DNA of 64,000 bases from an uncultured Algibacter sp. (GCF_947495675.1 NZ_CANLZX010000007.1:23224-87223); one strand, 5' to 3'; numbered from the stretch's first letter, positions 15,396 to 48,796 are shown. Program-made: numbers and translations. The notes: generated from the sequence alone by a model not told the origin.

Positions 15396-15410
15396 TCCTG
15401 TACTGTCTCG
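15396..15410 (-). promoter_or_regulatory. Operator-like phased direct repeat (TCCTGtactgTCTCG, plus strand) upstream of the GH78 tandem operon
   Basis: Half-sites lie at 15396..15400 and 15406..15410, exactly 10 bp apart. The site is 89 nt from the ATG at 15307 and sits between terminator 15461..15495 and the gene. Confidence 0.55.
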
Positions 15411-15518: not shown

Positions 15519-17969
15519 TTATCTAATTATAAGTTTAGAATGGAAAACCCTTTGATTATCGTCAACTATTTTTATTAAATATAATCCCGATTTAAATCGA
15601 CCATTATTATCAATATCAATTCTATTTGAATTTATTGTATTTTGATAAATAATTTGTCCAAGCATATCGTTTATTACAATAGTAGCTTTATTTACGCCAT
15701 TAAGTAAAACGGTAAATTGATTGTTTGCTGGATTAGGAAAAACCTTCGCTGAAAAAGCATTGGCTTCTACTTCTGGTGCACTTAGCGTTGTAGATTCTAC
15801 TACCCATTTAGACCTGTCGTCGGAATTTCCAATATGTTCAATTATACCGTTGGCGTTGTGATATATATAATTTGAACCATTTCGTGTTCGAAATTGATAT
15901 GTACCATCACTACTGTTATAAATAACGGTAAACTGTTTATCCGAATCTTCTCTTGGTGCAGAAAACCCTGTATTGATAATATCATTTGGAGGATTGCCAG
16001 CTGCTCGTAATATTCCCCTATCAGATCTTTTACTTTCTATATTATAATATTCTCCAGCTTTTACAAATTCCCATTCCTTATCGCCAGAAGCACTATTATC
16101 GCCTGTATCACTTTCAACGACATCTGAACCTACAGAGTATAAATATTTGCCTGTAACAAAATTCTTAATTCTATAAATATCACCTGTTAGGTCTGTTGGA
16201 TCGAATTCACTAAAATTAACAGTATTTTCAATTGAAGATACTGTTTCATTATTCACATTATACGCAATAGCTTGAAGTGTATAGTCTCCTTCAGCAGTAG
16301 GTGACCAATCTATAGCATAAGGCGCACTATTGTCTTCACCAAAATAAGAACCATTTACCCAAAATTCAACCTTAGATATACTGCCATTTTCATCAACTGC
16401 ATTCGCCGAAACTTGAACTGTTTCTCCTATATCAAAAGATGCACCGTTGGATGGTGAAGTTAAAGATACTCTAAACGGTTCTTGCACAATATCTAAATCA
16501 ATAATCTGAAGATAAAGTGGCTGCGCATTACCCGATTTATCTTCCATTAAGTAATAGTATGCTTTACCATTTTCTATGTGGACAACGCCGTGGTCAAACT
16601 GTTTTCCACTAGTAGCCTCATAAACCTTCTCAAAATTATCAGTTCCGCCTTCTGCTTTGTACACAACTACCCTACCGTTATTTAAACCTACTGTATAAAC
16701 ATTAGGCCCTGAGGTGTAAAAAGATCCTGTTATAGATTTTTCTGTAGTTGTAAACTCTGTAGCACCTGCTGGCTTGTAGGTGTGTAAATTTTTAGTAACG
16801 TTATTATCCAAATCTCGTACCTGACTCTTAATATGTACATCCCCATTGTTGGTAACGGTCCAATCAAATCCCCCTACAATGTATACTCTATTTGGATTTG
16901 TTGTCTCTACGTAATCTCCAGGTTCCATGACTTTCATAAAATCGGCATCCCATAATGGAAGACTAAAAGATTCTCCTTTATAATTCTTCCAACCCGTAGC
17001 AGCCGTTTGATCATCTGAATAGGCATAATACACACCGTTTTGATAAAGATATTTATCATCATTGTTTTGTGACCTACGTTGAAAACCTAAACGAAACTTA
17101 CCGTTTACATATTTCATATCACCGTAAAGCCCCCAGTTATAATCAATTCCTGGTTGGCTTCTAGCATTTAACCTATTAAAATCTGTGAAATTACCCCAAT
17201 CTCCTGTATTGGCATCGTATTTTATAAACTTAAACATACCATTGTTATTACCACCTTCCCGCATAAGCATGAAAAGGTCACCATCATCATTTTGGAAAAA
17301 CCGTGGATAGGTCAATGCAACAAACTCAGATTGAGCAGCAGTACCTGGCATTCTTAAATGTTTATAATCATCATTAGAATTTTTAACAAACTTATCTAAT
17401 GTAAAATCTGCATCTGGAAGAGATGCCGCATTTTTAACTGAATAAGAATATCTAAAATAATCGTTAGCTAAACTTCCATTTGATGGTCTACTGGCACTGT
17501 AAGCATGCATATCATATAACAAATGAATTGTACCATCTAAAGGACTTATACCAACAGCTATGGTATTATGAGATTCTCCAATCCAGTATTGATTTTGATA
17601 TCCTGTATGCCTATGAGGAAACTCTATAGTTGCCATTGTACCGGTTACTGTATTGTAACGGGTAAGCATAACATGACGATCTGCTTTACCACCACGATAC
17701 CACGTCATAAAAACATAATCACCATAGGTTTTTATGGCATCTCCATGAGCAGAAATATTACGTCCAAAGAAAAAATCATATGGTGCATTATCTCCTGTAT
17801 TAGAGGTGCCACTAGAAACTTTACTACCATCAAAATGGAGACCTAAATCTGTGATTTTAACTTCCGTTTCTAGAATAACTTGAGCTAAACTGGTTTGAAA
17901 TAAACACAGCGTAAGAAGAACACTTAAGTTTTTTATTAAGAAACTTAAGTTTGGGGTATTTTTTTTCAT
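15519..17969 (-). CDS. Secreted multidomain protein: BNR4-like beta-propeller + Ig-like domain + ricin-type beta-trefoil + T9SS C-terminal sorting domain
   Basis: 816 aa. The propeller region is His-rich: FPHRHTGYQNQYWIGESHNTIAVGISPLDGTIHLLYDMHAYS. The Ig-like segment reads VSLTSPSNGASF...APYAIDW. The trefoil-like segment reads YRIKNFVTGKYLY...QFRTRNGSNYIY...SKWVVE. The T9SS CTD reads KVFPNPANNQFTV...GLYLIKIVD. The gene is bounded by an operator-like element upstream and a terminator downstream. Confidence 0.65.
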   Translation of the reverse strand: MKKNTPNLSFLIKNLSVLLTLCLFQTSLAQVILETEVKITDLGLHFDGSKVSSGTSNTGDNAPYDFFFGRNISAHGDAIKTYGDYVFMTWYRGGKADRHVMLTRYNTVTGTMATIEFPHRHTGYQNQYWIGESHNTIAVGISPLDGTIHLLYDMHAYSASRPSNGSLANDYFRYSYSVKNAASLPDADFTLDKFVKNSNDDYKHLRMPGTAAQSEFVALTYPRFFQNDDGDLFMLMREGGNNNGMFKFIKYDANTGDWGNFTDFNRLNARSQPGIDYNWGLYGDMKYVNGKFRLGFQRRSQNNDDKYLYQNGVYYAYSDDQTAATGWKNYKGESFSLPLWDADFMKVMEPGDYVETTNPNRVYIVGGFDWTVTNNGDVHIKSQVRDLDNNVTKNLHTYKPAGATEFTTTEKSITGSFYTSGPNVYTVGLNNGRVVVYKAEGGTDNFEKVYEATSGKQFDHGVVHIENGKAYYYLMEDKSGNAQPLYLQIIDLDIVQEPFRVSLTSPSNGASFDIGETVQVSANAVDENGSISKVEFWVNGSYFGEDNSAPYAIDWSPTAEGDYTLQAIAYNVNNETVSSIENTVNFSEFDPTDLTGDIYRIKNFVTGKYLYSVGSDVVESDTGDNSASGDKEWEFVKAGEYYNIESKRSDRGILRAAGNPPNDIINTGFSAPREDSDKQFTVIYNSSDGTYQFRTRNGSNYIYHNANGIIEHIGNSDDRSKWVVESTTLSAPEVEANAFSAKVFPNPANNQFTVLLNGVNKATIVINDMLGQIIYQNTINSNRIDIDNNGRFKSGLYLIKIVDDNQRVFHSKLIIR

Positions 17970-18035: not shown

Positions 18036-18050
18036 TCCTGCTCTATCCTG
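18036..18050 (-). promoter_or_regulatory. Operator-like phased direct repeat (TCCTGctctaTCCTG) upstream of the BNR4-like gene
   Basis: Two perfect TCCTG half-sites lie 10 bp apart, 67 nt from start codon 17969. Confidence 0.6.
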
Positions 18051-20106: not shown

Positions 20107-20188
20107 ATACTAATATGATTTTTTCTTAGATAAAGAATTCTTACAACTATTTAAGATAATTATTATAAAATATTCAATCCTACTGTTT

Positions 20189-21973
20189 CTAATTTAAATC
20201 AGAAAGATTTATAGCTTTTGACTTACTAGGCTTAAAACCAATACGTTGAGACTGGACCATAATTATAGCATCTTTAGAAGCAGAAAATGGGTTTGTATAA
20301 ATCGACCACGTTTCAGGAAAATCACCACCTTTAGTTTTAATTTTATAACCTATTGATGCACCTTCTGTTTCGCAATTAATTTGAATTTCACCATTAGAAT
20401 AAGATATTAATGGTTGAGATGTTAGCGGTTTACTATCACTACCTTTCCAAAGTTGATTGATAAGTTCTGCTTCTGGTAAGTTTGGCTTATCACCAATTGC
20501 AACTAACCACCTATCCATTTCAGATCGTAATTCATTAAGCTTGTCTTTATAGTCTGGGTTATTAGCTAAATTATTTAATTCATGAGGGTCTGCTTTACAA
20601 TCAAACAACTCTTCTTTAGGTTTTGAATTTCTAAACCATTGCATTTGTAAATCGTTTAACTTACCAGTATCTTTTAATCTTAATAATTCTTGCATTGTCG
20701 GAATTTTTTCCCTGTAAGCAAGTGGTAAATAATAACCTTGTTCTGGTCTATAATTACGAATGTATTTAAATTGATTATCCTTTACTGCTCTTATAGCATC
20801 GGTTACTTCATCGAAACGGTCTGCAGCAGCATGTATATAGTTACGTTTATTTTTAGCCTGATAATCACCTAAAAATGCTTGTCCTTGCATATACTCTTCA
20901 GGCTTTTCACCTATTAAAGATAATAACGTTGGAGCAAAATCTGTAAAACTAATTAATTGCTCGTCTTTAGTTCCTGCATTCATTTTATTAGGAAAACGAA
21001 TAATCATTGGTGTATTTAAGCCTGAATCATAAATTAAACGTTTTTGCCTAGGTAATGGCCCTCCGTGGTCACCATAGAAAATGATAATGGTATTTTCTAA
21101 AAGTCCATCATCTTCTAATTGCTTTAAAACGGCTCCAACTTGATTGTCCATTTCGGCAATATTGTTGTACAATTTCCACATATCACGTTTAGTAACGTCA
21201 TTATCTGGAAGGTATGGCGGGATATTAAATTTTGTATCTTTAGGTAAATGCTTTGTAATATCTTCTTCTGCAATTCTATTTTTTGCTTCAGGTAGTCCGT
21301 TTTGTTTCCAAGCATAAGTTCTATCACCAGCACGGTAATGTCTTGTTTCTATTTGTCTAAAACCATAAGGTTCAAATAAGCCAGATTCGTGTGTTTCTGT
21401 AAAATTGAATATTGAAAAAAAAGGCTGATTATCTTTTCTGTTACGCCAATGTGCATAAGGACTACTTTCATCCCACGCTGTAACTGGTGCTCTAAATTGA
21501 TAATCTTCCTTATAATTATTAGTACAATAATATCCATTTAAACGGAGTAATTCACTAATCATTTTTACTTGAGAAGGGGGTACTGCTTCATACTTAGGCA
21601 AGCCTGTTTGCTTAGTATTAGATGTTGTACGCATATGGTTTGCACCAATACTTGAAGGGTACATTCCTGTTGCTATGGCTGCCCTACTAGGGGCACATAC
21701 ACCAGAAGTTGAATACAAATTAGGATAAATAACACCTTCGTTAGCTAAACGAGTTAAATTTGGTGTTTTAACAGTTAAGTCTCCAAAAGGTGGAATATAA
21801 GCTCCCATATCTTCTGTAACTAACCATAAAATATTAGGTTTCTTAGGTAATTCTACTTGCTCGTTATTTACTATCTGTTCATTTTTGCTTTTGGTGTTTT
21901 GACATGTAAAAAACATTAAACAAAATACGCTACAAATTAATGTATTAATTTTCATTTTTAATTGTATTATCAT
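20189..21973 (-). CDS. S1 sulfatase with a C-terminal Ig-like (chitobiase/hexosaminidase-C-like) domain
   Basis: 594 aa. PNILWLVTEDMG...SGVCAPSRAAIATGMYPSSIGANHMR gives a C-x-P-x-R motif. The last ~80 aa form a beta-rich tail (ISYSNGEIQINCETEGASIGYKIK...). The true start may be the second Met (MKINTL...). Confidence 0.9.
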   Translation of the reverse strand: MIIQLKMKINTLICSVFCLMFFTCQNTKSKNEQIVNNEQVELPKKPNILWLVTEDMGAYIPPFGDLTVKTPNLTRLANEGVIYPNLYSTSGVCAPSRAAIATGMYPSSIGANHMRTTSNTKQTGLPKYEAVPPSQVKMISELLRLNGYYCTNNYKEDYQFRAPVTAWDESSPYAHWRNRKDNQPFFSIFNFTETHESGLFEPYGFRQIETRHYRAGDRTYAWKQNGLPEAKNRIAEEDITKHLPKDTKFNIPPYLPDNDVTKRDMWKLYNNIAEMDNQVGAVLKQLEDDGLLENTIIIFYGDHGGPLPRQKRLIYDSGLNTPMIIRFPNKMNAGTKDEQLISFTDFAPTLLSLIGEKPEEYMQGQAFLGDYQAKNKRNYIHAAADRFDEVTDAIRAVKDNQFKYIRNYRPEQGYYLPLAYREKIPTMQELLRLKDTGKLNDLQMQWFRNSKPKEELFDCKADPHELNNLANNPDYKDKLNELRSEMDRWLVAIGDKPNLPEAELINQLWKGSDSKPLTSQPLISYSNGEIQINCETEGASIGYKIKTKGGDFPETWSIYTNPFSASKDAIIMVQSQRIGFKPSKSKAINLSDLN

Positions 21974-28698: not shown

Positions 28699-28713
28699 TC
28701 CTGTACAGTACTG
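28699..28713 (-). promoter_or_regulatory. Operator-like phased direct repeat (TCCTGtacagTACTG) upstream of the GH5-like/GH3/GH2 operon
   Basis: Half-sites lie at 28699..28703 and 28709..28713, 66 nt from start codon 28633 and downstream of the susD terminator. Confidence 0.55.
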
Positions 28714-28841: not shown

Positions 28842-30425
28842 TTATCTATACCCATTATTTGTTGGATCTGATTCCAATAAAGCTGGATTATTTTCTAATT
28901 CTTGTAAAGGAATAGGCAATAAAACATGATATGGTTTTATATTTACATTAGGCTCCCAGAAACGATATTCAAGATTCTGAACTACATCTAATAATATTCC
29001 CCATCTAATCAAGTCATATCTTCTAGTTGCTTCTCCGGCTAACTCCCATTTACGTTCATCGTAAATAGCTCTTCTAAACGATTCTTGATCTAGTCCTAAT
29101 ATAGCTTCAGCTTCTACTTGAGTAGCAAAAGCACGCTCTCTTACTTCTCTTATATATTCAAAAGCAGTGTTAGGGTTTCCTCCAGGGCGTTCGTTTTCGC
29201 ATTCAGCAGCCATTAAGGCAACATCAGCTAAACGGAATACCATTCTATTATCTGAGTGGTTAAAACGCGGTGAAGTTTCCAAATCTAAATTCCAAAATTT
29301 AGCCATGTAAGGAAATACTAAATCGAAACCTAAATAGTTATCTACAATATTAAGTTCTCTTCTTAAATCATTCATAGGAAATTTTTCCGCAAAATCTTTC
29401 GAAGCAACTTGTAAACCAGTTCCATTAAAGGCTTGTCCATTTGCAGCAAGCGCAGCTCCAAGAGCTCCTCTTTCATCGGTATTAAGGGGTTCATCTCTTA
29501 AACGCGGGTTAAACATACTTGGTCTCCAACTATTATTACCAGCAAATGAACGGCCAGGAAAAGCAGGATCAAATATACCTTCAATGTCCTTTGCAAAATC
29601 TAATGACCAAATAATCTCAGCATTATATTCATTTAACGGATCAAAAACATCATTATAGTTTGGTAAAATGGTATGAGGAGATCCATTTAAAATTTCATTA
29701 CACTTATCTAAACCAGCTTGCCAGTTTTTCTGCTTCATATAAATTTTAGCCATAATTGTAGCGGCTGCCCATTTTGAAGCTCTACCGCTTTGATCACCGG
29801 TATATGAATCTTGTAAATTATCTTGAGCAAACTGTAAATCTACTAAAGTACCTGCAATTATAGTTGCTTCATCTGTTCTTCCTAATGCACCTATTTCCTC
29901 TAGTGTAAGCACTTCTGTATAATATGGTGCCGCGCCCCAAAGATTAGTAATGTGCCAGTAACATAAACCTCTTAGAAATGTAGCTTCTGCAATAATATCT
30001 GTTCGAGCTGGTTCAAGTATGCCTTCATTCCCAGTTACTCTATCTATAATTACATTGGTATTTAATATGACTCTATAAAGATCCTTCCAAGTATCAGAAA
30101 CACTCATTTTTTGAACAGATACATCTGCCAAAGCTTCATTCATTGTATAATTACCAATAGGCTGTACAAAATTTGCAGCACGGTTAGGTTCAATGATATC
30201 GGCACCATTATCATAAAAATGATCAAGCCCTACTTGCCCGTATATAGAATTATTCTTTAAAATGGCATATGTACCATTAATAGCTTGTCTTGCATCACTT
30301 TCTGAAGCAAAAAAGGTTTCAGGAGAAACAAGTGCTCTTGGTTCTTCTTCTAAAAAACTCTCACAACTAAAACATGAGAATATCATAAAGACGTATAAAA
30401 TTATATTTTTTGTTTTCATAATCAT
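28842..30425 (-). CDS. SusD/RagB-family outer-membrane glycan-binding lipoprotein
   Basis: 527 aa with lipobox FSCFSC. Typical SusD features are present (AIATIMAKIYMKQKNW TPR-like helices; C-terminal RKWELAGEATRRYDLIRWG). It lies 7 nt downstream of susC. Confidence 0.9.
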   Translation of the reverse strand: MIMKTKNIILYVFMIFSCFSCESFLEEEPRALVSPETFFASESDARQAINGTYAILKNNSIYGQVGLDHFYDNGADIIEPNRAANFVQPIGNYTMNEALADVSVQKMSVSDTWKDLYRVILNTNVIIDRVTGNEGILEPARTDIIAEATFLRGLCYWHITNLWGAAPYYTEVLTLEEIGALGRTDEATIIAGTLVDLQFAQDNLQDSYTGDQSGRASKWAAATIMAKIYMKQKNWQAGLDKCNEILNGSPHTILPNYNDVFDPLNEYNAEIIWSLDFAKDIEGIFDPAFPGRSFAGNNSWRPSMFNPRLRDEPLNTDERGALGAALAANGQAFNGTGLQVASKDFAEKFPMNDLRRELNIVDNYLGFDLVFPYMAKFWNLDLETSPRFNHSDNRMVFRLADVALMAAECENERPGGNPNTAFEYIREVRERAFATQVEAEAILGLDQESFRRAIYDERKWELAGEATRRYDLIRWGILLDVVQNLEYRFWEPNVNIKPYHVLLPIPLQELENNPALLESDPTNNGYR

Positions 30426-30432
30426 TATTTTT

Positions 30433-33400
30433 TTAAAAAGTTACGTTTAAACCAAGTGTTATAACTCTTGGGTTAGGATATTGTGCACTAAGATATCCTT
30501 GTGCTATATTACTACGACCAAAACTACTTGCTTCTGGATCAATTAATCTCGTTTTAGAAAACAATAATAAATTCGTTCCTGAAAAATAAACGGTTGCATT
30601 GTTAATTCCGTCTAATCCCATTTTATCAACAGGGAAATTATATGCTAATCTCACGTTTTTTAGACGTATGTGCGATCCATCTTCAACATATTCCGAATTA
30701 CTTGGTGTGTTTGTAACAGAATCTGCACCTGCTCTAGGAATATTAGATGTTTCATTAACACCTTCTATCCAACGGTCACGTAAATCTCCAAACTTAACAC
30801 CTTCTCCACGGTTAAAATAATTATTCCTCATGTTTAGGTTGTAGACTTCATTGCCCGTAGTACCTTGAAAATAGAAAGAAAAATCCCAGTTCTTATATGA
30901 AAATGAGTTTTCAAATCCAAAAATTAAATCTGGTGTAGGATCTCCTAAAATCACGTTATCCTCAGTTGAAATAATACCATCCGGAACACCATCAGGACCG
31001 CTAATATCGTCAAATCTAGACCCACCAACAACTTGAGCAGTTAAACCAGAAGCATCAATCTCAGCTTGACTTTTCCATGTCCCTAAGTATCTAACTCCTG
31101 TGTAAACAGGAACTGATTCTCCAACAATTAAACGTGTATTACCAGACCCAATAATAGGATCTACTACAATATCAATAAAATCTACACCACCAAGGTCTAA
31201 AATTTTGTTTCTGTTTGCAGATAATGTTACCGTAGAATTCCAATTAAAATTAGAGGTTCTAACATTTGTAGAGTTTACAAGAAATTCCCATCCTTTATTT
31301 TCTAAAGATCCAACATTTTGTAATTGACTATTAAAACCTGTTTGTCTTGGAATAGTTACATCTAATAATAAATCTTCTGTTTTCTTGTAGTAATAATTAA
31401 ATTCTGTAAAAACTCTACCACCAAACAAAGATGCTTCTAGAGCGATATCGAACGAACTTGTAGTCTCCCACATTAAATTGGGATTTGAAGGCCTACCAAG
31501 AGTCAAACCGGGCACTTCTTTACCATTAAGTGTTGTATTTGCTTCAGTTAATTCTCCAAAAGTTCTATATGGCTCAATAGCTTGATTACCTGATTTACCC
31601 CAACTAGCTCTTAATTTTAAATCTTGAAACACATTTTGATCTTGCATAAAATCTTCTTCAGATATTTTCCAAGCTCCTGCTATTGAAGGGAAAAACGCAT
31701 ATTTATTACCTGGTGCAAAACGAGAACTACCATCTGTTCTTCCTACTAAAGTTAAAAGGTATTTATCTTTATAGCTATAATTTAATCTTCCGAAAAAAGA
31801 TGCTATTTGAAATGCACTATAATCACTAGAAACCGCTGCCCTAACTGGATCTGAAAAACCTAAGTTATCAAAACCTACTGCATCACTTGTAATTCCTGCA
31901 GCCTCTGATAAAGCTATTTCAGTAGCTACTTTTTGAAAAGAAGCACCTGCAAGTGCGGTAATACTATGATTTTCTCCAAAATCTGATTGATATTGTATAG
32001 TATTTTCATTATTCCATCCTGTACTAGCAACTGTTCTCACACTCGCTGTACCTCCATCGGGTACGTTATCTGCGAGAAAACCTGGCAATTGACTAGATGT
32101 AAATCTATTTTGCTTAGTATTGTTAAATTCTGGACTAAATGTAGAACGAATAGTCCACTTTGGAGCTGGACTATACTCTAAATAAACTGTTGCTAATAAA
32201 TTATTAGTAAACGTTTCATTAGTATTCAATGCTATAGCAGCTAAAGGGTTATTAAAAGGAGCTCCTGCAACCTCATCTCGTCCATTAAAGGTTCCATCGT
32301 CATTAAAAGCAGGCTGTGTACGAAGTATACCAAAAGCTGCCTGACTAAAACTACCCAGCGCGTTATCTTGTTCTAGTCTAGAATAATTTAATCTAAATCC
32401 TGTTTTTACTTTATCGTTAATTTTAAGATCTAAATTTGTTCTGAAAATATATTTTTCAATACCAGAACTCCTAACGATACCTTCTTGATTAAAATAATTA
32501 AACGATGTGTAATAATTAACATTATCTGATGCTCCAGAAACAGAAATATCTGCATTATAAATTGGAGCAGTTCCTAATACTAAATCAACCCAATCGTTGT
32601 CAGGATATGAAGATGGATCACCTGGAAATGGCTCTGCAGCAGACCTAAAACGAGCACTTTCGTTTGTAAACTCTATTTGCTCCCTTTGAGAAAGTCTATC
32701 TGGTAATTCTGGTAACATTTGTGAACTTGTATATAGATTTAGACTAATCTGTGGTTTTCCAGTTCCAGCTCCTACACCATTTTTTGTAGTTACTAAAACT
32801 ACCCCATTTGCACCTCTAGAACCATAAATGGCAATAGAAGAAGCATCTTTTAAAACCTCGATAGATTTAATATCGTTACTATTAATGTTGTTTAAGTTGA
32901 AATTTGTACCAACCACAATACCATCAATAACCCAAAGCGGCTCATTACTTCCCGTAATGGAGTTACCTCCTCTTACTCTAATAACAGTACCAGCACCTGG
33001 CGCACCACTAGTTTGTGTTACTTGAACACCGGCAGCTCTTCCTTGTAAAGCTTGATCTACTCTGGCAACTGGTACAGCCGTTAAATCTTCTGAACTTACA
33101 GATGATACCGATCCTGTTAAATCTGATTTTCGTTGCGTACCGTAACCAATAACAACGACTTAATCTAGCTTATTGTCTTGCTCTAAAGATACATTGATTT
33201 GAGTTTGATTACCTACAAGTATTTCTTTTGTTGAGTAACCAATGTAAGAAATAACAAGTGTACTTAGTGCATCTGCCTTAATAGTAAACTCTCCATCAAA
33301 ATCAGTAGTTGTACCTTGTGATGTCCCTTTAATTAATACTGTTGCTCCTGGTAGTGGTTGACCGTCTGCAGTAACTGTACCTTTTACAGACTGCGCATTA

Positions 33401-33489
33401 GACATTGCCATACAAGAAAATGCCAAAATAACACACATCCAGGTTTTCCGAAAACTCGAACGAATACTTAATTTAGTTTTTAAATTCAT
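30433..33489 (-). pseudogene. SusC-like TonB-dependent transporter interrupted by one in-frame TAA (33160..33162)
   Basis: ORFs 33160..33489 (signal peptide plus CarboxypepD_reg-like domain, ending ...LEQDNKLD*) and 30433..32916 are in the same frame. I translated the stretch between them and found no further stop: VVVIGYGTQRKSDLTGSVSSVSSEDLTAVPVARVDQALQGRAAGVQVTQTSGAPGAGTVIRVRGGNSITGSNEPLWVIDGIVVGTNF (plug domain). The stop replaces the Glu of the conserved LDEVVV(I/V)GYGT junction. The total length of 1018 codons is a normal SusC length. Confidence 0.8.
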
Positions 33490-33548
33490 AAAATTTTAGT
33501 TTGATTGTTAATAGATTCCTAAAATATTATGAATTTTTTTATCAACTG

Positions 33549-33613
33549 TCCTGTTGCATCCCTTACTATCCTGCACTACCCTGTGCTATTCTGTACTATT
33601 CTGTACTATCCAA
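33549..33613 (-). promoter_or_regulatory. Array of ~7 helically phased copies of the 10-bp unit (T[CT]CTG+TACTA) upstream of susC
   Basis: The plus strand reads TCCTGttgca TCCCTtacta TCCTGcacta CCCTGtgcta TTCTGtacta TTCTGtacta TCCaa, every half-site exactly 10 bp from the next. The array ends 60 nt from the susC ATG (33489) and begins 13 bp after terminator 33626..33662. Confidence 0.65.
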
Positions 33614-33625
33614 TAATAGGTTGTT

Positions 33626-33662
33626 AAAAAAAAATCTCAGACTACATAGTAATCTGAGATTT
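33626..33662 (-). terminator. Rho-independent terminator after the GH39-like gene 33695..35383
   Basis: The 10-bp perfect stem AAATCTCAGA (33632..33641) / TCTGAGATTT (33653..33662) is extendable by 3 further pairs. On the minus strand the stem is followed by a run of T, from the 9-A run at 33626..33634 on the plus strand. Confidence 0.8.
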
Positions 33663-33694
33663 CACAACTAAAAGAATGGTTATTTACTCTTTAT

Positions 33695-35383: not shown

Positions 35384-35425
35384 TTTGTTTACTTCAAAAA
35401 TAAATAAAAACCAACTAACAAACCA

Positions 35426-35455
35426 TCCTGTACTGTACTGTACTGTACTGTAATG
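35426..35455 (-). promoter_or_regulatory. Operator-like element merged with a pentanucleotide microsatellite (TCCTG TACTG TACTG TACTG TACTG TAATG) upstream of the GH39-like gene
   Basis: It carries the same TCCTG/TACTG words as the other sites, 43 nt from start codon 35383. Confidence 0.55.
35428..35452. repeat. Perfect (CTGTA)5 pentanucleotide microsatellite
   Basis: Five uninterrupted CTGTA units were counted base by base at 35428..35452. Confidence 0.95.
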
Positions 35456-39762: not shown

Positions 39763-40710
39763 TTATAATTTAATAATCTTTTTTAACAATGTCGTTTTAC
39801 TATCTTTTGTGGATATAAAATAAATTCCACTAATTAAATCGTTAATATCAATAATTTGATTTCTGGATGTACTTGTATATTCACGAACGGTAGCACCATG
39901 TATATTAGATATAATAAGTTTGGAGTTAAGTGGTAAATTTTTAAAATTCACAATACCATTGGTTGGGTTTGGGTACACTTTAATTTCTTCTAAATTACTT
40001 TCAGAGCCTATTGATAATGAACCATTGTAGCATGAAGATTCGCTATTTGATAAATTGAAAGCAACACTATCAGAAATACCATTTAATCTTAACACCATTC
40101 TATCTAATAGACAATAAGAAGACCTTGCATCTAAAGTTATTTTATATATCCCAGGGTTGTTAAAAGTAACAAAGACTCTATGAGAATCGCCATCATTAGT
40201 ATTGGCAACAAATCTCCACTCCTGCGTATTTCCAAAAATTTTAAAAAAACCTAATTCTGATTTTCCTTCCGGGCAATCATTATTTGCATCGGTTTCACAA
40301 GCAGGTCTAGGGATAACTCTATGACCAGATTTTATACCATAATAATCATCGGCATCAATTTTTAACCAAGAATCGTTGTGCTCTCCATTAGATGTTCCCA
40401 TATTTATTTTCATGTGCCAAGCAAATCTATAGGTACCAGGAGTATTTATTTTAATATTATAAACAATTGGAGCATTTGATAAGTTGTTAAAAGATTGTGG
40501 ACCATCCCAGTATATATAACCACTACCTGTATAACCAGAAACACTATTATCTATTTTCCAGTTTGGGTGATTTATTATACCGGACTCCATTTCAATTGTT
40601 AAAAGTCCGTTTTGCTCTTCAAATGGTAATGTACCATCACAGGCTGCTGTTTGTGCAAACACACCCATTGATAATATTAAAAGAAAAAGAAATGTAATTC
40701 TATTTTTCAT
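39763..40710 (-). CDS. Secreted CBM-like beta-sandwich protein with a T9SS C-terminal sorting domain
   Basis: 315 aa. NGLLTIEMESG...GYIYWDGP...GTYRFAWHMK...LLDRMVLRL resembles the N-terminal module of 7715..9724. The CTD reads KVYPNPTNGIVNF...SGIYFISTKD. It is the first gene after an operator-like element. Confidence 0.6.
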   Translation of the reverse strand: MKNRITFLFLLILSMGVFAQTAACDGTLPFEEQNGLLTIEMESGIINHPNWKIDNSVSGYTGSGYIYWDGPQSFNNLSNAPIVYNIKINTPGTYRFAWHMKINMGTSNGEHNDSWLKIDADDYYGIKSGHRVIPRPACETDANNDCPEGKSELGFFKIFGNTQEWRFVANTNDGDSHRVFVTFNNPGIYKITLDARSSYCLLDRMVLRLNGISDSVAFNLSNSESSCYNGSLSIGSESNLEEIKVYPNPTNGIVNFKNLPLNSKLIISNIHGATVREYTSTSRNQIIDINDLISGIYFISTKDSKTTLLKKIIKL

Positions 40711-40789: not shown

Positions 40790-40804
40790 TCCTGAACTGT
40801 CATG
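40790..40804 (-). promoter_or_regulatory. Operator-like phased direct repeat (TCCTGaactgTCATG) upstream of the CBM-like T9SS gene operon
   Basis: Half-sites lie at 40790..40794 and 40800..40804, 80 nt from start codon 40710. Confidence 0.5.
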
Positions 40805-43842: not shown

Positions 43843-46431
43843 TTATTTTATTATAATTTTATGATTTGAAATACCTTGCTCACTCTCTATTTGTAATATA
43901 TAAATACCTTTTTGTTTATTCTGAAAACGAATTTGTTTTTCTGATTTAAAGCTCCCTTTTTGAACTTCTACTCCATTTATTGAGTAAATTCTATATTGAG
44001 CTTTTCCTCCATTGTTTATTTTAATGTTAAAGACTCCTATACTAGGATTAGGAAACACCTTAACCTTTTGTAGGTTATTTTTATCTACAGATAATTGACC
44101 TTTAGAAAATATGGCTTTGATATTCATATCTGATGTTATTACTAATGCTAAAGGATTATCAGTACTAGTTACATCTCCTTCCCAACGTTCAAACTCCCAA
44201 CCTTCATCTGCAATAGCATTTAAACTAAATTCTTGCCCATTTAGTGCTGTACCACTACTATAATTTAAAAGACCTTGTCCTTCTTTACTTAGCGTTATTG
44301 TATGGATAGTTGGATCTGTAGGAATAAATTCAATGCTATCAAAAATGATACTTCCAGAACTGAAATTATTATAAAATTTAAATTCATTAATAGTACCTGT
44401 CCATAGCCCCCAATTAGTTAAATCAAAATCTAAGGTATGCCATTGGTTATCATTAGGTACTGTTTCTTTTTTTCTTCCAGACAAAAAACTTGTACCTGGT
44501 GCATTTGGTAACATTTGAAGATCTGGTTTATCTGTACTATTTTTAACTACAATTCTTAAGGTGCCATATAAACTAGCATTTATATTTAGATCTGTTATAG
44601 CTATCATAGGCCAAGTAACATCTGAAGTAAAAGGCACACTTAATTTATCATTTTCTGTATTAATTGTTACCTCTCCATTAACTGCATACCAAGACCAAGC
44701 TGAAAAATCATCAGTAGTAGTCCAAACATAAGTTGCTGGAGTAATGGCTTCCACAAAGCTTGCTTCTGGTCTAAATTCAAATTTTTCAAAAGCAAAAGAT
44801 TCAATTTCAGTTGATACATTAACTTCAGACCCTGATTTACCATCATTTCGTTCTTCAGTATTAATACTTTTCCATTCTGTAAATTGATGAGGGCTTGGAT
44901 TTTCATAATTTTGATATGCAGTAAACCCTTCTTCTGTTAAGGTTCGTTCTGGTGCTCCTTTCTCATCATAACCACTCTTTACATAGTTTGAATTGTTGAT
45001 TAAAAAATTCTGAAGTTTGTTATTCTCTTTACCATAAGATTTACTTCTATAATACAAGGTTGTACCAACAGGTAGATCTGTTGTAAACGAAACATCTACA
45101 GTTTCCTTGTTTCTATAAGTTAAGGAACTACTATTATAATTATAGATTAACGCATCATATTCATTCTCAGTATTATTTTTTACAAAGATGGCATCCAACT
45201 CATTTGTTGATGTATTAGGACTCCCGGAAATACTAGTTTCATAACGAATTAAACCTAGCATCTCATTTAATTCTTTTATAGCATCTGGATTTTCACTTCC
45301 TGTTCTATTTCCCCATCTGTAAATAAATTCTAAGCCTTTGTCCTTATTCTTATAATAAGTATTGGAAAAAATCAATTCTACGATTTCTCTATGTGAAGTT
45401 TCACAACCAATTGTTCCTTTACCGTCTGCTCCATTCATGGTCGTTACGGTTTTATACTCCATAATATCTATTGACGTTTCAGGATTCCATTTAGGATTAT
45501 TTATAAGAGGCGCAAAATTTTTGATGTATTTTCCATTCATATCCCTAAGAACACTATTACCAATAACAATATAATCTGAAAGTCCCCAAAAGTCACATGT
45601 TATATTATTATCAAAATTATAATCTATTAAGTCTTCTATAAATGATGCATAAGGTTCACCTTTATAATTTAATACTGATCCACTCTTATATATAAAACCT
45701 GGGTTTCTAGTGTGCAAGCCTATCTTAGCATTTGGTAATATAGCTCTAACGGCTTGTACTGTATTTGCAAAATGCTCGATAAAATCTTGCTTTGTGCCAT
45801 ACCAATGCTCTGGAGTTTCAATTTCTGAACCTACTCTAAAACGCCATGACAACACTTTTTCTTCACCATAGGTCTCAACCAATTTTGTCATTAAAGCTTT
45901 TATAAAATCATGGTAAGCTTGTTTATCTGCAGGAGGCAAAGAGTTTCCATAAATTGATATTCTCTCATTTTCTCGAAAATTAATATTATCTCGTGTGCCT
46001 TCTGGAATAAATGTATACCCATGTTGAAAAGCCCATGGTGGTTGATCTAAAGCTATTTGTAAAATTTCAGTTTGTGAATTAACAACTTTATTTAGTCTAT
46101 CTATTAGCGCATCCCATTGATAAACGTATTGATTATTAATAGAATCGTAAATACAAGGATCAAAATCTAAATCTTTTACATTTTCATCATTAACTTTTTT
46201 ATTAATACCTCCAATCATCCTTACTATATTCATTTTAAGGCCAGGACGAATATTAGATCCATTTCTTGGACTTATTCGATTAGCAGTATTCCAAACATCA
46301 TGAATAGGGAGTTTTCTATCACTTTCACTTGTAAAATCGGTGGATAAGTTTACTTGACCTTGAGTTGAAGTAACTAAAATAAAACACAATAAAATAAAAA
46401 TATTGCATTTAATAAAACTAAAATTTTTCAT
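43843..46431 (-). CDS. Clan GH-A, GH39-like glycoside hydrolase with CBM-like/Ig domains and a T9SS C-terminal sorting domain
   Basis: The ORF track begins at a TTG (46470). The ATG at 46431 (MKNFSFIKCNIFILLCF..., signal peptide) is the more likely start. WRFRVGSEIETPEHW is paralogous to WRFRVATEPNYSPQHW of 33695..35383. The CTD reads VKVFPNPSIGVFNIK...KGIYILQIESEQG. Confidence 0.5.
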   Translation of the reverse strand: MKNFSFIKCNIFILLCFILVTSTQGQVNLSTDFTSESDRKLPIHDVWNTANRISPRNGSNIRPGLKMNIVRMIGGINKKVNDENVKDLDFDPCIYDSINNQYVYQWDALIDRLNKVVNSQTEILQIALDQPPWAFQHGYTFIPEGTRDNINFRENERISIYGNSLPPADKQAYHDFIKALMTKLVETYGEEKVLSWRFRVGSEIETPEHWYGTKQDFIEHFANTVQAVRAILPNAKIGLHTRNPGFIYKSGSVLNYKGEPYASFIEDLIDYNFDNNITCDFWGLSDYIVIGNSVLRDMNGKYIKNFAPLINNPKWNPETSIDIMEYKTVTTMNGADGKGTIGCETSHREIVELIFSNTYYKNKDKGLEFIYRWGNRTGSENPDAIKELNEMLGLIRYETSISGSPNTSTNELDAIFVKNNTENEYDALIYNYNSSSLTYRNKETVDVSFTTDLPVGTTLYYRSKSYGKENNKLQNFLINNSNYVKSGYDEKGAPERTLTEEGFTAYQNYENPSPHQFTEWKSINTEERNDGKSGSEVNVSTEIESFAFEKFEFRPEASFVEAITPATYVWTTTDDFSAWSWYAVNGEVTINTENDKLSVPFTSDVTWPMIAITDLNINASLYGTLRIVVKNSTDKPDLQMLPNAPGTSFLSGRKKETVPNDNQWHTLDFDLTNWGLWTGTINEFKFYNNFSSGSIIFDSIEFIPTDPTIHTITLSKEGQGLLNYSSGTALNGQEFSLNAIADEGWEFERWEGDVTSTDNPLALVITSDMNIKAIFSKGQLSVDKNNLQKVKVFPNPSIGVFNIKINNGGKAQYRIYSINGVEVQKGSFKSEKQIRFQNKQKGIYILQIESEQGISNHKIIIK

Positions 46432-46497
46432 TTTTTTTTTTTTATAACTATCATCATTATACTCTCTCAAAATAACAACTTTATTATATGATTAATA

Positions 46498-46512
46498 ACC
46501 TGTACTATCCTG
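46498..46512 (-). promoter_or_regulatory. Operator-like phased direct repeat (ACCTGtactaTCCTG) upstream of the GH39-like T9SS gene
   Basis: Half-sites lie at 46498..46502 and 46508..46512, 67 nt from the preferred ATG at 46431. Confidence 0.55.
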
Positions 46513-46963
46513 CATAAAAACGCATCAACACTTTTTTACTCAATAGTGTGAATTTTTATCTAGATTAATACTCTGTGTTCTGGAGGTTATGAAAATTTAG
46601 CAAATAGCTGTGGTTGCTATGAGATTACTGATGGTAATATTTTAAAAGACGAAGAAGCTAGTAGCACCAACCTAAGTACTAGGCCTCTACTTTATGCTAT
46701 CAAAACTTCAGACAATAAAAATAAACTTGAAAAACTATGTAACGATTAACCCTTTATGTAACTAAAAATGGAGATATGTTGCTAATAGTTGAGCTTTTTC
46801 AAAAATAAAAGTAGGCAATACTAAAACCTACATTAAACACTACCATACTACAGAACGGGTTTACCCTAGTTATGCACTTATTACAAAAGTGATACTGGGA
46901 ATTTAACTGCACATGTTGTATATAAAAAGGTTAAGTTCTAAAGGGAATAAACAATAAGATATT

Positions 46964-48724
46964 TTAGTTTACAACAATTTTATGAGTTGAAACACCTTGA
47001 CTACCTCTTAGTTGCAGAATATATATTCCTGTTTGATTATTATCAAAATGAATCTCTTTAGATGATATGAAATTTCCTTTTTGAATTTCTAAACCGTTAA
47101 TTGAATAAATTCGATACTGCACTTCTTCTCCATGAGTTAGTTTTACATTAAACGTACCTTTATTAGGATTTGGATATATGCTTATCTCATCTTGCTTTAC
47201 GATTTTTGAATTAGATAATGATGCATTAGTTAATTCTATAATATTTATTGAAAATTTTGGTAATATAATACTTTCGCTACCATCGCTAATTAAAGTTAAA
47301 GGATCTACATCTATCCCCATAGTTCTTTCTTCGTCCATTGTAGAAAACGCAATTGCTTTATGTACTGCAGCATCTGTATAAGCTACCCCATCAATATTTA
47401 CATTGAATGGCACGTCTTGATCACTAAGATTTACAACAAAAACAGAGGTATTTCCATCTTTAGTTACCACTCTTGCATTAACTGCTTTTACGCTATCTTC
47501 AAGGTTAGCTACTTGTACATCGCTTTCAATTAATGTGGTATTTTCAAGTGCCAAACGTATAATTTCATAAGTTGAACCAAAAAGAGTTTTTTCTAAAGGA
47601 TATTTAATTCTTGGACGTTCTACACCACTTGGAGCAATATAGGTTTCCCAAACATAATGTGAGTTTAATTGTCCATTAACACTAAACCAATTGGCACGTT
47701 CAAAAACATCTTGATTTTGACTCATATAGATATAACAATCTGCCATTCCTAAAGCAGATACCGCATTCGGGCCACCAGATTTCACACCCCACTCTGTTAA
47801 CCAAATGGGCTTATTGGGTGCAACTTGATGTGCATAATCGTAAATAGAATTTCCTAGATGTTTACGTGCTGTAAGTGCCGTACCAAAAGCTTCATCACTA
47901 TTGGCAGCATCATCAGGATCTGAACCTACGTAGGTATGTACTGTAACTGCATCAAAATAAGTTAAATCTTCTGTTAAATCTGCATTCCAATTAGGGTTTG
48001 CCCAACTATCTTTTCTTAATAATGGTATAGATACTTTTATATTGGGATCTTTAGCTTTAAGTGCTGCTGACATGGCTTTTGCTCTAGCAATATAGTCTTC
48101 TGTATTTGGAATAATAGAGCTTCGTTGACCTGGATAAAAACACTCGTTACCCATTTCAACAACTTTTACTTCTAAACCCCTAGCTATCAAATCATCATAT
48201 CGTGCTATGGTTTCCGGACATCCGTTATTAAAATCAGTACCATCTGCACTCATGTTAAAAGTCCACATCATATCAAACCCCTTGCCTGTTGTAGATTTTC
48301 TTGAAGTATTTAAACTTGTTAGCCCATCAATACCAACTTTAATATTATTGCTATCAAATATTTTTATATTAGCTAATAAATCAGGAGATTTTGTTCTAAT
48401 AGTCTTGCTAACTCCTTGTTCGTATTGAAAGCTTTCTGTTCCAAAAAGACGAGTAACATCACGCCGCCAATCATACCAGTTAGCCCATAAACCATGAGGA
48501 AACCTTATAGTTATAGGTTTTAATTTGTTTATTAAATCCTTCTCTTTTGTAGTTGAAAAATGATGTGTATTTGTTCCAAGTAATAAATTGTTATACACTT
48601 CTTTTGATGTTGAAGTTATATTAATAGTTGCTTCCATATTAGACGGCAAACTAAAAGGGTAATCTTGAGCATATAATGATGCTGAGATTAGTAGTACTAA
48701 GCAAAAATTAAGTAATCTCTTCAA
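46964..48724 (-). CDS. Clan GH-A TIM-barrel glycoside hydrolase (GH51/GH79/GH30-like motifs) with a T9SS C-terminal sorting domain
   Basis: 586 aa with a TTG start followed by a good signal peptide (KRLLNFCLVLLISASLYAQ). IRFPHGLWANWYDW resembles R-[FY]-P-G-G...Y-x-W. VVEMGNECF is the candidate acid/base, VHTYVG the H-x-Y motif and IWLTEWGVK the candidate nucleophile. The CTD reads ISIYPNPNKGTFNVK...GIYILQLRG. Confidence 0.5.
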   Translation of the reverse strand: MKRLLNFCLVLLISASLYAQDYPFSLPSNMEATINITSTSKEVYNNLLLGTNTHHFSTTKEKDLINKLKPITIRFPHGLWANWYDWRRDVTRLFGTESFQYEQGVSKTIRTKSPDLLANIKIFDSNNIKVGIDGLTSLNTSRKSTTGKGFDMMWTFNMSADGTDFNNGCPETIARYDDLIARGLEVKVVEMGNECFYPGQRSSIIPNTEDYIARAKAMSAALKAKDPNIKVSIPLLRKDSWANPNWNADLTEDLTYFDAVTVHTYVGSDPDDAANSDEAFGTALTARKHLGNSIYDYAHQVAPNKPIWLTEWGVKSGGPNAVSALGMADCYIYMSQNQDVFERANWFSVNGQLNSHYVWETYIAPSGVERPRIKYPLEKTLFGSTYEIIRLALENTTLIESDVQVANLEDSVKAVNARVVTKDGNTSVFVVNLSDQDVPFNVNIDGVAYTDAAVHKAIAFSTMDEERTMGIDVDPLTLISDGSESIILPKFSINIIELTNASLSNSKIVKQDEISIYPNPNKGTFNVKLTHGEEVQYRIYSINGLEIQKGNFISSKEIHFDNNQTGIYILQLRGSQGVSTHKIVVN

Positions 48725-48781: not shown

Positions 48782-48796
48782 TCCTGTACTGTCCTG
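48782..48796 (-). promoter_or_regulatory. Operator-like phased direct repeat (TCCTGtactgTCCTG, best copy) upstream of the clan GH-A T9SS gene
   Basis: Two perfect TCCTG half-sites lie 10 bp apart, 58 nt from start codon 48724. On the coding strand a TACATTTA (near TAnnTTTG, -7-like) box follows about 25 nt downstream of the repeat. Confidence 0.6.

Follow-up and report, generated by a model that had tools for sequence, protein, structure and literature searches.

Upstream of the susC gene in a 64,000-nucleotide stretch of DNA from an uncultured Algibacter sp. (GCF_947495675.1 NZ_CANLZX010000007.1:23224-87223; hereafter the window, with positions counted from its first letter) lies a tandem array of seven 10-bp units, each made of a 5-nt half-site and a 5-nt spacer (33544..33613, minus strand). 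Two such units make up a bipartite direct repeat, ACAGGAtAGTACAGGATAg. We consider it probable that the array is the 20-bp bipartite site, repeated three and a half times, of a factor controlling a conserved L-rhamnose/ulvan regulon in Bacteroidota, and that this factor is an activator acting in a class II-like manner. The array is an extreme case of an ordinary promoter architecture, arrays of regulator sites beside promoters being already a known kind.

Structure of the array and geometry of the susC promoter

Direct reading of the plus strand at 33549-33613 gave TCCTGttgca TCCCTtacta TCCTGcacta CCCTGtgcta TTCTGtacta TTCTGtacta TCCaa, an exact match to the seven 10-bp units quoted in a preliminary description of this DNA, which had also correctly placed them directly upstream of susC. 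Tandem Repeats Finder, applied to the window, reported the segment 33564-33611 with a period of 10, 4.8 copies, 78% matches, 0% indels and a score of 61. Since the minus strand encodes all of the genes here, it is also the strand on which the array reads in the sense direction. From the promoter-distal to the promoter-proximal end, the units are TTGGAtagta (33613-33604), CAGAAtagta (33603-33594), CAGAAtagca (33593-33584), CAGGGtagtg (33583-33574), CAGGAtagta (33573-33564), AGGGAtgcaa (33563-33554) and CAGGAcagtt (33553-33544). The three promoter-proximal units had been described as nearly identical; in fact just two units are identical (CAGAATAGTA), and both are promoter-distal, beside the terminator of the upstream GH39 gene. 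Scored against CAGGA, units 1, 3, 4, 5 and 6, counted from the promoter, have 0-1 mismatch, while the distal end unit TTGGA is a two-mismatch remnant, giving a total of a run of 6 plus a remnant. As in arrays of the OmpR/PhoB type, the direct repeats are contiguous, with a period of 10 and no indels.

A predicted sigma-A -7 box, TATTTTAG (33519..33526, minus strand; consensus TAnnTTTG), is located 22 nt downstream of the proximal CAGGA. The order in the sense direction, 5′ to 3′, is thus the array ending in the proximal CAGGA (33553-33549), 22 nt, TATTTTAG, 29 nt, and the susC ATG at 33489. Because the -7 box occupies positions -12 to -5 in flavobacteria (PMC9723704), susC transcription would start near 33514 and the array would extend from about -99 to -30. 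Of the public RNA runs, which are oligo-dT or cDNA libraries from a labelled host organism, X36 yielded no reads on this region. Distally, the array is bounded by the intrinsic terminator of the upstream GH39 gene, a 15-pair stem followed by a T run (33622..33663, minus strand). No plausible small open reading frame was found across the upstream spacer and array of susC, and an Rfam search of the spacer returned sub-threshold matches on the terminator hairpin only. An RNA element at the array was rejected, since the array lies upstream of the predicted transcription start.

The array unit is a regulon motif within the window

The array had been described as built from a two-half-site element, and the same element does precede other operons of the locus. 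Across all window intergenic regions, read in sense orientation, CAGGA-N5-CAGGA(TA) was found ahead of eight further genes or operons besides susC, so that nine operons in all are preceded by the motif, every one in sense orientation. Allowing up to one mismatch, CAGGA-N5-CAGGA occurs 8 times in the window against 1.58 expected, a count reached in 0 of 100 shuffles; seven of the eight matches are intergenic and on the minus strand. In 7 of the 9 window promoters, a -7 box (TAnnTTTG) matching at 5/6 or 6/6 positions follows 21-23 nt downstream of the last CAGGA.

Motif and promoter geometry across Bacteroidota

A scan with the SusC sequence yielded 80 orthologous loci at 54-85% identity, from Algibacter, Hyunsoonleella, Maribacter, Polaribacter, Zobellia, Flavobacterium, Saprospiraceae and Cyclobacteriaceae. 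The motif was present upstream of the orthologous susC in approximately 70 of the 80; it was not found upstream of susC in L051, L052, L064 and L079. A matrix built from 68 non-redundant susC promoters gave ACAGgAtAGTACAGGATAg, then TAnTTTnG at +27 to +34. The site consensus, ACAGGAtAGT-ACAGGATAg, consists of two direct 10-bp repeats and spans 20 bp. It is a direct repeat and not the palindromic NyGTNxACNy operator of GntR/AraR-type regulators, its only self-complementary part being the internal GTAC. A variant of the motif, CAGGTAAGT, forms a group in Zobellia and Kriegella.

Over the window and the loci together (1.79 Mb), the 10-mer core with a -7-like box at 21-23 nt occurred 155 times, compared with 3.55 in local shuffles, an enrichment of about 44-fold. 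With a stricter -7 box, 72 sites had a spacing of exactly 22 nt, one had 21 nt and two had 23 nt; small satellite peaks at 32 and 42 nt arose from the arrays. The spacing is fixed at more than 70 promoters, which serve unrelated genes, although the sequence between motif and -7 box is not conserved. Downstream of these modules lie genes for SusC (55), ulvan lyases of three kinds (23), GH5 (14), sulfatases (11), GH78 (7), GH3 (6) and RhaEW (6), as well as GH39. TTG was found at the -33 position in only 5 of 75 motif promoters, and without it these promoters are unlikely to be strong unaided.

The exact 22-nt spacing and the missing -33 TTG together suggest a class II-like activator: as at class II promoters, the site stands at a fixed spacing and the upstream promoter element is weak or absent. 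They also speak against the term operator, which had been applied to the unit and implies a repressor. In the mechanism that we propose, a dimer on the proximal pair of half-sites would replace the -33 contact and recruit RNA polymerase as a class II activator, and two further pairs upstream would raise occupancy through cooperative side-by-side binding. The result would be that susCD has the strongest or most sensitive response in the locus, the signal being rhamnose or a rhamnose-containing fragment. The three distal units would be a recent, lineage-specific duplication, an event made easy by the 5/10-bp self-similarity of the motif. The site, its orientation and conservation, the spacing, the make-up of the regulon and the position of the regulator gene beside it were observed directly; binding, activation, cooperativity, the effector and the benefit of the extra units are predicted from them.

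In eleven of the loci (L001, L002, L003, L005, L007, L010, L016, L024, L062, L067 and L077), a second copy of the motif on the opposite strand (..CCTGTnnTATCCTG..) occurs about 100-250 bp upstream of susC. This copy serves a divergent gene (PL40-like/GH115_C-like, GH3), and since such genes have their own motif copy, those susC intergenic regions are bidirectional regulon promoters.

A GntR/LacI-type protein is the best candidate regulator

In a search for the regulator, open reading frames of the 80 loci without a counterpart in the window were clustered, and the representatives were scanned with Pfam. One transcription factor was recurrent, a protein of about 348 aa with GntR and Peripla_BP_3 domains. 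Its gene adjoins susC in six loci, five from Saprospiraceae and one from Pseudozobellia (L036, L037, L038, L041, L068, L080), and is found elsewhere in two further susC loci. In five genomes, those of Kriegella sp. EG-1, Algibacter agarivorans, Maribacter ulvicola, Arenibacter algicola and a Jiulongibacter metagenome-assembled genome, it is divergent from an adjoining L-rhamnose catabolic operon, rhaEW-rhaI-rhaB, with lldD in three. In all five, GGTACAGTACAGGA, 22 nt and a -7 box precede rhaEW, and the same motif stands ahead of neighbouring GH78, GH43 and susC genes. Two of the five genomes had also given motif-bearing susC loci (L028, L001). In total, the regulator gene was co-located with a motif-bearing rhaEW or susC context in 13 loci. 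Homologues number more than 3000 at E ≤ 1e-20, and identity across flavobacterial genera is 72-78%.

No curated family or solved structure matched the protein beyond its winged helix. An AlphaFold model (pLDDT 82) displayed a winged helix, a flexible linker and a LacI-type core, and Foldseek matched it to LacI, RbsR, CcpA and SghR at E ~1e-11. The modelled architecture is that of Bacillus subtilis AraR. On co-location with the motif, we regard this GntR/LacI-type protein as the best candidate for the motif-binding factor, with about an even chance of being that factor. Its effector is probably L-rhamnose or a rhamnose-containing ulvan fragment. Rhamnose is also reported to induce the ulvan PUL of Formosa agariphila, a point that carries no weight in the present argument.

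A related arrangement was observed in Algibacter agarivorans (L082, 7438-11047), where an FBPase-like gene, with the motif in its promoter at the standard 22-nt spacing, is followed by two regulator paralogues in tandem. This arrangement suggests autoregulation, and the two proteins are possibly separate sensors of rhamnose and of ulvan fragments.

The main alternative, in our view a rather unlikely one, is that the same protein acts at the same sites as a repressor, like AraR of Bacillus subtilis and AusR of Zobellia. The site would overlap -33 and block RNA polymerase, rhamnose or an ulvan fragment would release it, and adjacent operators at susC would allow the operon with the strongest expression to be repressed tightly and cooperatively. 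Both parts of the candidate, the GntR domain and the LacI-type core, come from families made up mostly of repressors, and a -33 TTG, if present, would lie beneath the 3′ end of the site. There is also a precedent in AusR of the Zobellia alginate polysaccharide utilisation locus (PUL), which has one to three operators per promoter, three of them at a TonB-dependent transporter promoter, with more operators giving stronger repression (PMC7641319). However, AusR operators vary in position, some overlapping the -7 box and others lying at a distance of 32 or 125 nt (PMC7641319), whereas the distance to the -7 box reported above is exact across unrelated genes with no conservation of the sequence between. 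The extra sites, moreover, extend away from the region bound by polymerase, and with so few -33 TTGs the promoters are unlikely to be strong on their own. Overall, activation would seem roughly twice as probable as repression.

The usual regulators of PULs in Bacteroides were also considered. The array could be the target of a hybrid two-component system (HTCS) or a SusR-like regulator, whose predicted sites are direct repeats as well (PMC3878776), or a -35-like element of an extracytoplasmic function (ECF) sigma factor. All of these are very improbable. Predicted HTCS sites have a period of about 21 bp (PMC3878776), compared with 10 bp and a 5-bp sub-period here. No gene for any such regulator was found in the window and none was recurrent in the 80 loci; equally, no response regulator of the OmpR/PhoB family was recurrent in the window or those loci. 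As for an ECF factor, the -7 box is a sigma-A one, the window SusC lacks an N-terminal signalling extension, and in L052 and L064, where genes for an ECF sigma factor and a FecR anti-sigma factor lie immediately ahead of susC, the motif is absent. In these two loci, the same transporter lineage is thus wired to a different regulatory system.

Length and history of the array

Run length was scored by counting half-sites with no more than one mismatch to CAGGA at 10-bp steps, with one weak internal unit allowed. At 74 susC promoters, the run lengths were 1 (29 promoters), 2 (36), 4 (7) and 6 (2), a pattern that bears out the suggestion that array length is variable in evolution, here between genera. 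Even run lengths are favoured, which fits one dimer per pair of half-sites. The two runs of 6 belong to the window, which adds the seventh, two-mismatch remnant, and to Flavobacteriaceae/Kriegella sp. EG-1 (L028). None of 94 motif promoters of other genes exceeded a run length of 3. Runs of at least 4 therefore occur at 9 of 74 susC promoters and at 0 of 94 others (Fisher p ~5 × 10−4, uncorrected for shared ancestry), in agreement with the proposal that the element is expanded at susC. Long arrays were found in several separate lineages (the window with L065, L053 and L007; L020, L056 and L073; L023; L028; L068).

Alignment resolved the array into two parts. The proximal four units (33544..33583, minus strand) are orthologous to four-unit arrays in Algibacter marinivivus (L065), an uncultured Algibacter (L053) and Seonamhaeicola maritimus (L007). 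The distal three (33584..33613, minus strand) are a lineage-specific extension, where these three relatives have unrelated AT-rich sequence. As the distal 30 bp replace that sequence, the near-identical units there are a recent addition at the far end of the array. The recent duplication that had been suggested for the proximal units would therefore concern the distal ones.

It may be that function is confined to one or two proximal pairs of half-sites, and that the distal three units are a neutral by-product of slippage in a self-similar sequence, without effect on expression. We hold this to be somewhat unlikely. The distal units are indeed lineage-specific and nearly identical to each other, their half-site CAGAA is off consensus, and slippage does occur here, as a neighbouring pentamer array (35426-35452) differs by three units between near-identical strains. 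Neutral slippage, however, would not readily account for long arrays that recur in separate lineages, always at susC and never at the 94 other regulon promoters, nor for a seven-unit form that five public assemblies share without change.

A conserved insert, CATAACGG(G/T)TAGT, was observed between the upstream CAG-containing units and the proximal CAGGA in nine loci (L006, L009, L010, L012, L032, L049, L061, L062, L077). It makes the distance 14 or 24 bp instead of 10 or 20, so the 10-bp phasing upstream of the proximal site is not kept in all lineages.

Variation among strains

Contigs from public runs span the array in five cases (X1, X2, X4, X25 and X26, ~99% identical); X9-X12, which are more divergent, break in or near it. 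The five contigs differ by 2-8 substitutions per 500-1000 bp and have no indel in the array, a comparison of length that applies at the assembly level, as contigs drop rare variants. One substitution, 33574 C>T in the public contigs, converts TAGTG to the consensus TAGTA.

These data bear on the proposal that the array is a phase-variable contingency repeat, in which high-frequency changes of copy number within a population would switch susCD. We find it hardly credible. The array is a tandem repeat in a promoter, and a neighbouring array varies between strains, but the units are imperfect (78% matches), copy number is the same in all five near-identical assemblies, and a change in copy number would not alter the proximal site or its spacing to the -7 box. 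A phase-variable repeat is near-perfect and differs in copy number among close strains; this does not describe the susC array.

It does describe the nearby pentamer array, (TACAG)5-CAGGA, which contains the same motif upstream of the GH39 gene (35426..35452, minus strand; -7 box 35395-35402). Here (CTGTA)5 at 35428-35452, in the sense direction (TACAG)5 running into the GH39-promoter CAGGA, is 15 bp, or three units, shorter in 4 of 4 public runs examined, with otherwise identical flanks, giving five-unit and two-unit alleles. Assembly collapse is an unlikely cause, since the tract is shorter than the 31-mer of the assembler. The motif is itself a chain of alternating pentamers, ACAGG and ATAGT, which explains why such tracts arise, and the difference hints that promoters of this kind evolve quickly.

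A broader reading of these observations is that the binding site itself is a microsatellite of ACAGG/ATAGT, partly homogenised to (ACAGT)n. Slippage would add or remove units upstream of a fixed site and so tune individual PUL promoters at the strain level, the reader being a GntR/LacI-hybrid sugar sensor that would differ from its known relatives in acting as a class II activator on direct repeats. Examples would be susC, whose half-sites number 2, 4 or 6-7 depending on the lineage, and the GH39 promoter, where near-identical strains have 2 or 5 pentamers. We regard this as rather unlikely; if true, it would mean fast strain-level tuning of PUL promoters in marine Bacteroidota.

Observations at odds with the proposed activator array

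Several observations weigh against the activator mechanism and the part played in it by the full array. No transcription factor gene is present in the 64-kb window, and the candidate protein is drawn from other genomes. Sugar regulators of the GntR and LacI types usually repress and bind palindromes, whereas the site here is a direct repeat. Unit 2, an internal unit with the half-site AGGGA, has two mismatches, so some units of the array may bind poorly or fail to bind. The half-sites at the distal end read CAGAA, with an A that few of the orthologous upstream half-sites have at that position (5 of 68). The placing of all half-sites on one face of the helix can be retained in part: a period of 10.0 bp against ~10.5 bp per turn produces a drift of ~100 degrees across the full array, and the description is true of neighbouring units and not of the two ends.

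In addition, susC of the window has a single in-frame TAA (33162-33160, minus strand; LD*VVVIGYGTQ) in an otherwise full-length, 85%-conserved gene. Position 33162 is A in the window and C in every public contig, including those ~99% identical, where the codon is GAA (Glu). The stop may be a strain-specific nonsense mutation, with the gene broken in this strain, or a sequence error. The array predates it, as strains with an intact susC have the same array.

Relation to known systems

Contiguous direct repeats with a period of 10-11 bp that abut or replace the upstream promoter element are familiar from the OmpR sites F1-F2-F3 at ompF and from the pho boxes of PhoB. There, winged-helix proteins bind head to tail, and upstream copies help to load the promoter-proximal one. 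Those proteins differ from the candidate in being phosphorylated response regulators of Proteobacteria; the candidate here is a one-component sugar sensor in Bacteroidota, at a -33/-7 promoter.

Bacillus subtilis AraR resembles the candidate in its GntR winged helix and LacI/GalR-type core and in its regulon for sugar and polysaccharide utilisation. The candidate matched the AraR structure PDB 4egy at E 9e-7, with similarity limited to the winged helix. AraR also has two in-phase operators at strongly regulated promoters and one at others (summarised in PMC7641319), but these operators are palindromic and AraR is a repressor.

AusR of the Zobellia galactanivorans alginate system is similar in being a GntR-type protein of a marine flavobacterial PUL with one to three site copies per promoter, the highest number at a TonB-dependent transporter (susC-like) promoter, and in the sugar-derived effector that is expected (PMC7641319). 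In contrast to the candidate, it belongs to the FadR subfamily and is a proven repressor that binds palindromes overlapping the -7 box at variable positions (PMC7641319). The array here is a direct repeat at a fixed 22 nt upstream of the -7 box, with up to 6-7 half-sites, and the candidate has a LacI-type core.

Predicted HTCS/SusR sites of Bacteroides are likewise direct repeats upstream of susC-like PUL genes (PMC3878776), but consist of two boxes ~21 bp apart and have a regulator encoded in the PUL, neither of which is true here. The sites of DeoR-type RhaR (PMC3870299) belong to another protein family and other taxa. That 2013 survey of rhamnose regulons makes no mention of a GntR/LacI-type regulator or of the motif (GntR, 0 occurrences; PMC3870299).

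No regulator or operator for ulvan PULs, and none of the motif strings, is named in the searchable open literature. As far as that literature shows, the motif, the rhamnose/ulvan regulon across Bacteroidota, the type of candidate regulator and the susC-specific, slippage-prone expansion appear to be new. Ulvan PULs are models for the turnover of algal biomass and sources of enzymes. The analysis puts forward a cis-element whose promoter geometry is precise, a regulon joining the degradation of ulvan with the catabolism of L-rhamnose in several Bacteroidota families, and a concrete candidate regulator. The susC-specific expansion fits the pattern of AusR, with most sites at the transporter promoter, and suggests a general rule for the relative output of PUL operons.

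The locus and its other motif sites

The window, from a flavobacterium of low GC content, is an ulvan-type PUL. It encodes rhamnosidases of families GH78 (four) and GH106 (two), numerous sulfatases, enzymes of families GH39, GH43, GH2, GH3 and GH5, an ulvan lyase with a PLH30 beta-trefoil, an L-rhamnose mutarotase and one susC/susD pair. SusC (CarboxypepD_reg, Plug and barrel; 30433..33489, minus strand; ATG at 33489-33487) has orthologues 85% identical, and susD (28842..30425, minus strand) is co-transcribed with it across a 7-nt gap.

The remaining bipartite sites, all on the minus strand, precede further genes or operons of the locus. They are CAGGAcagtaCAGGA (48782..48796), upstream of a glycosidase gene (46964-48724) whose product is sorted by the type IX secretion system (T9SS); CAGGAtagtaCAGGT (46498..46512), upstream of a GH39-T9SS gene; CATGAcagttCAGGA (40790..40804), upstream of the operon starting at 40710; CAGTActgtaCAGGA (28699..28713), upstream of the GH5-GH3-GH2-sulfatase operon, with a perfect -7 box, TAACTTTG, at 22 nt; CAGGAtagagCAGGA (18036..18050), upstream of the ulvan lyase gene (15519-17969); and GAGACAGTACAGGA (15396..15410), upstream of the GH78-GH78-...-sulfatase operon, with a weaker -7 box (4/6). 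A degenerate copy, AACAGTAGGATTG (20175-20190), is found ahead of the gene for a hypothetical protein of 571 aa and rhaM. This copy lacks a good -7 box at 22 nt; the promoter may have decayed or be weak.

Motif-like matches were also seen within coding sequence on the minus strand, at 10809 (GH78) and 32016-32025 (susC). These are probably due to chance, although internal promoters are possible. The intergenic region 46471-46963 is unusually long (493 bp) and contains no open reading frame of at least 60 aa, and a 23-bp tandem repeat (46388-46433; Tandem Repeats Finder score 64) is located just inside the start of the adjoining gene. The TTG start annotated for this gene at 46470 overlaps the predicted -7 box at 46468-46475, so that the real start is probably a downstream ATG.
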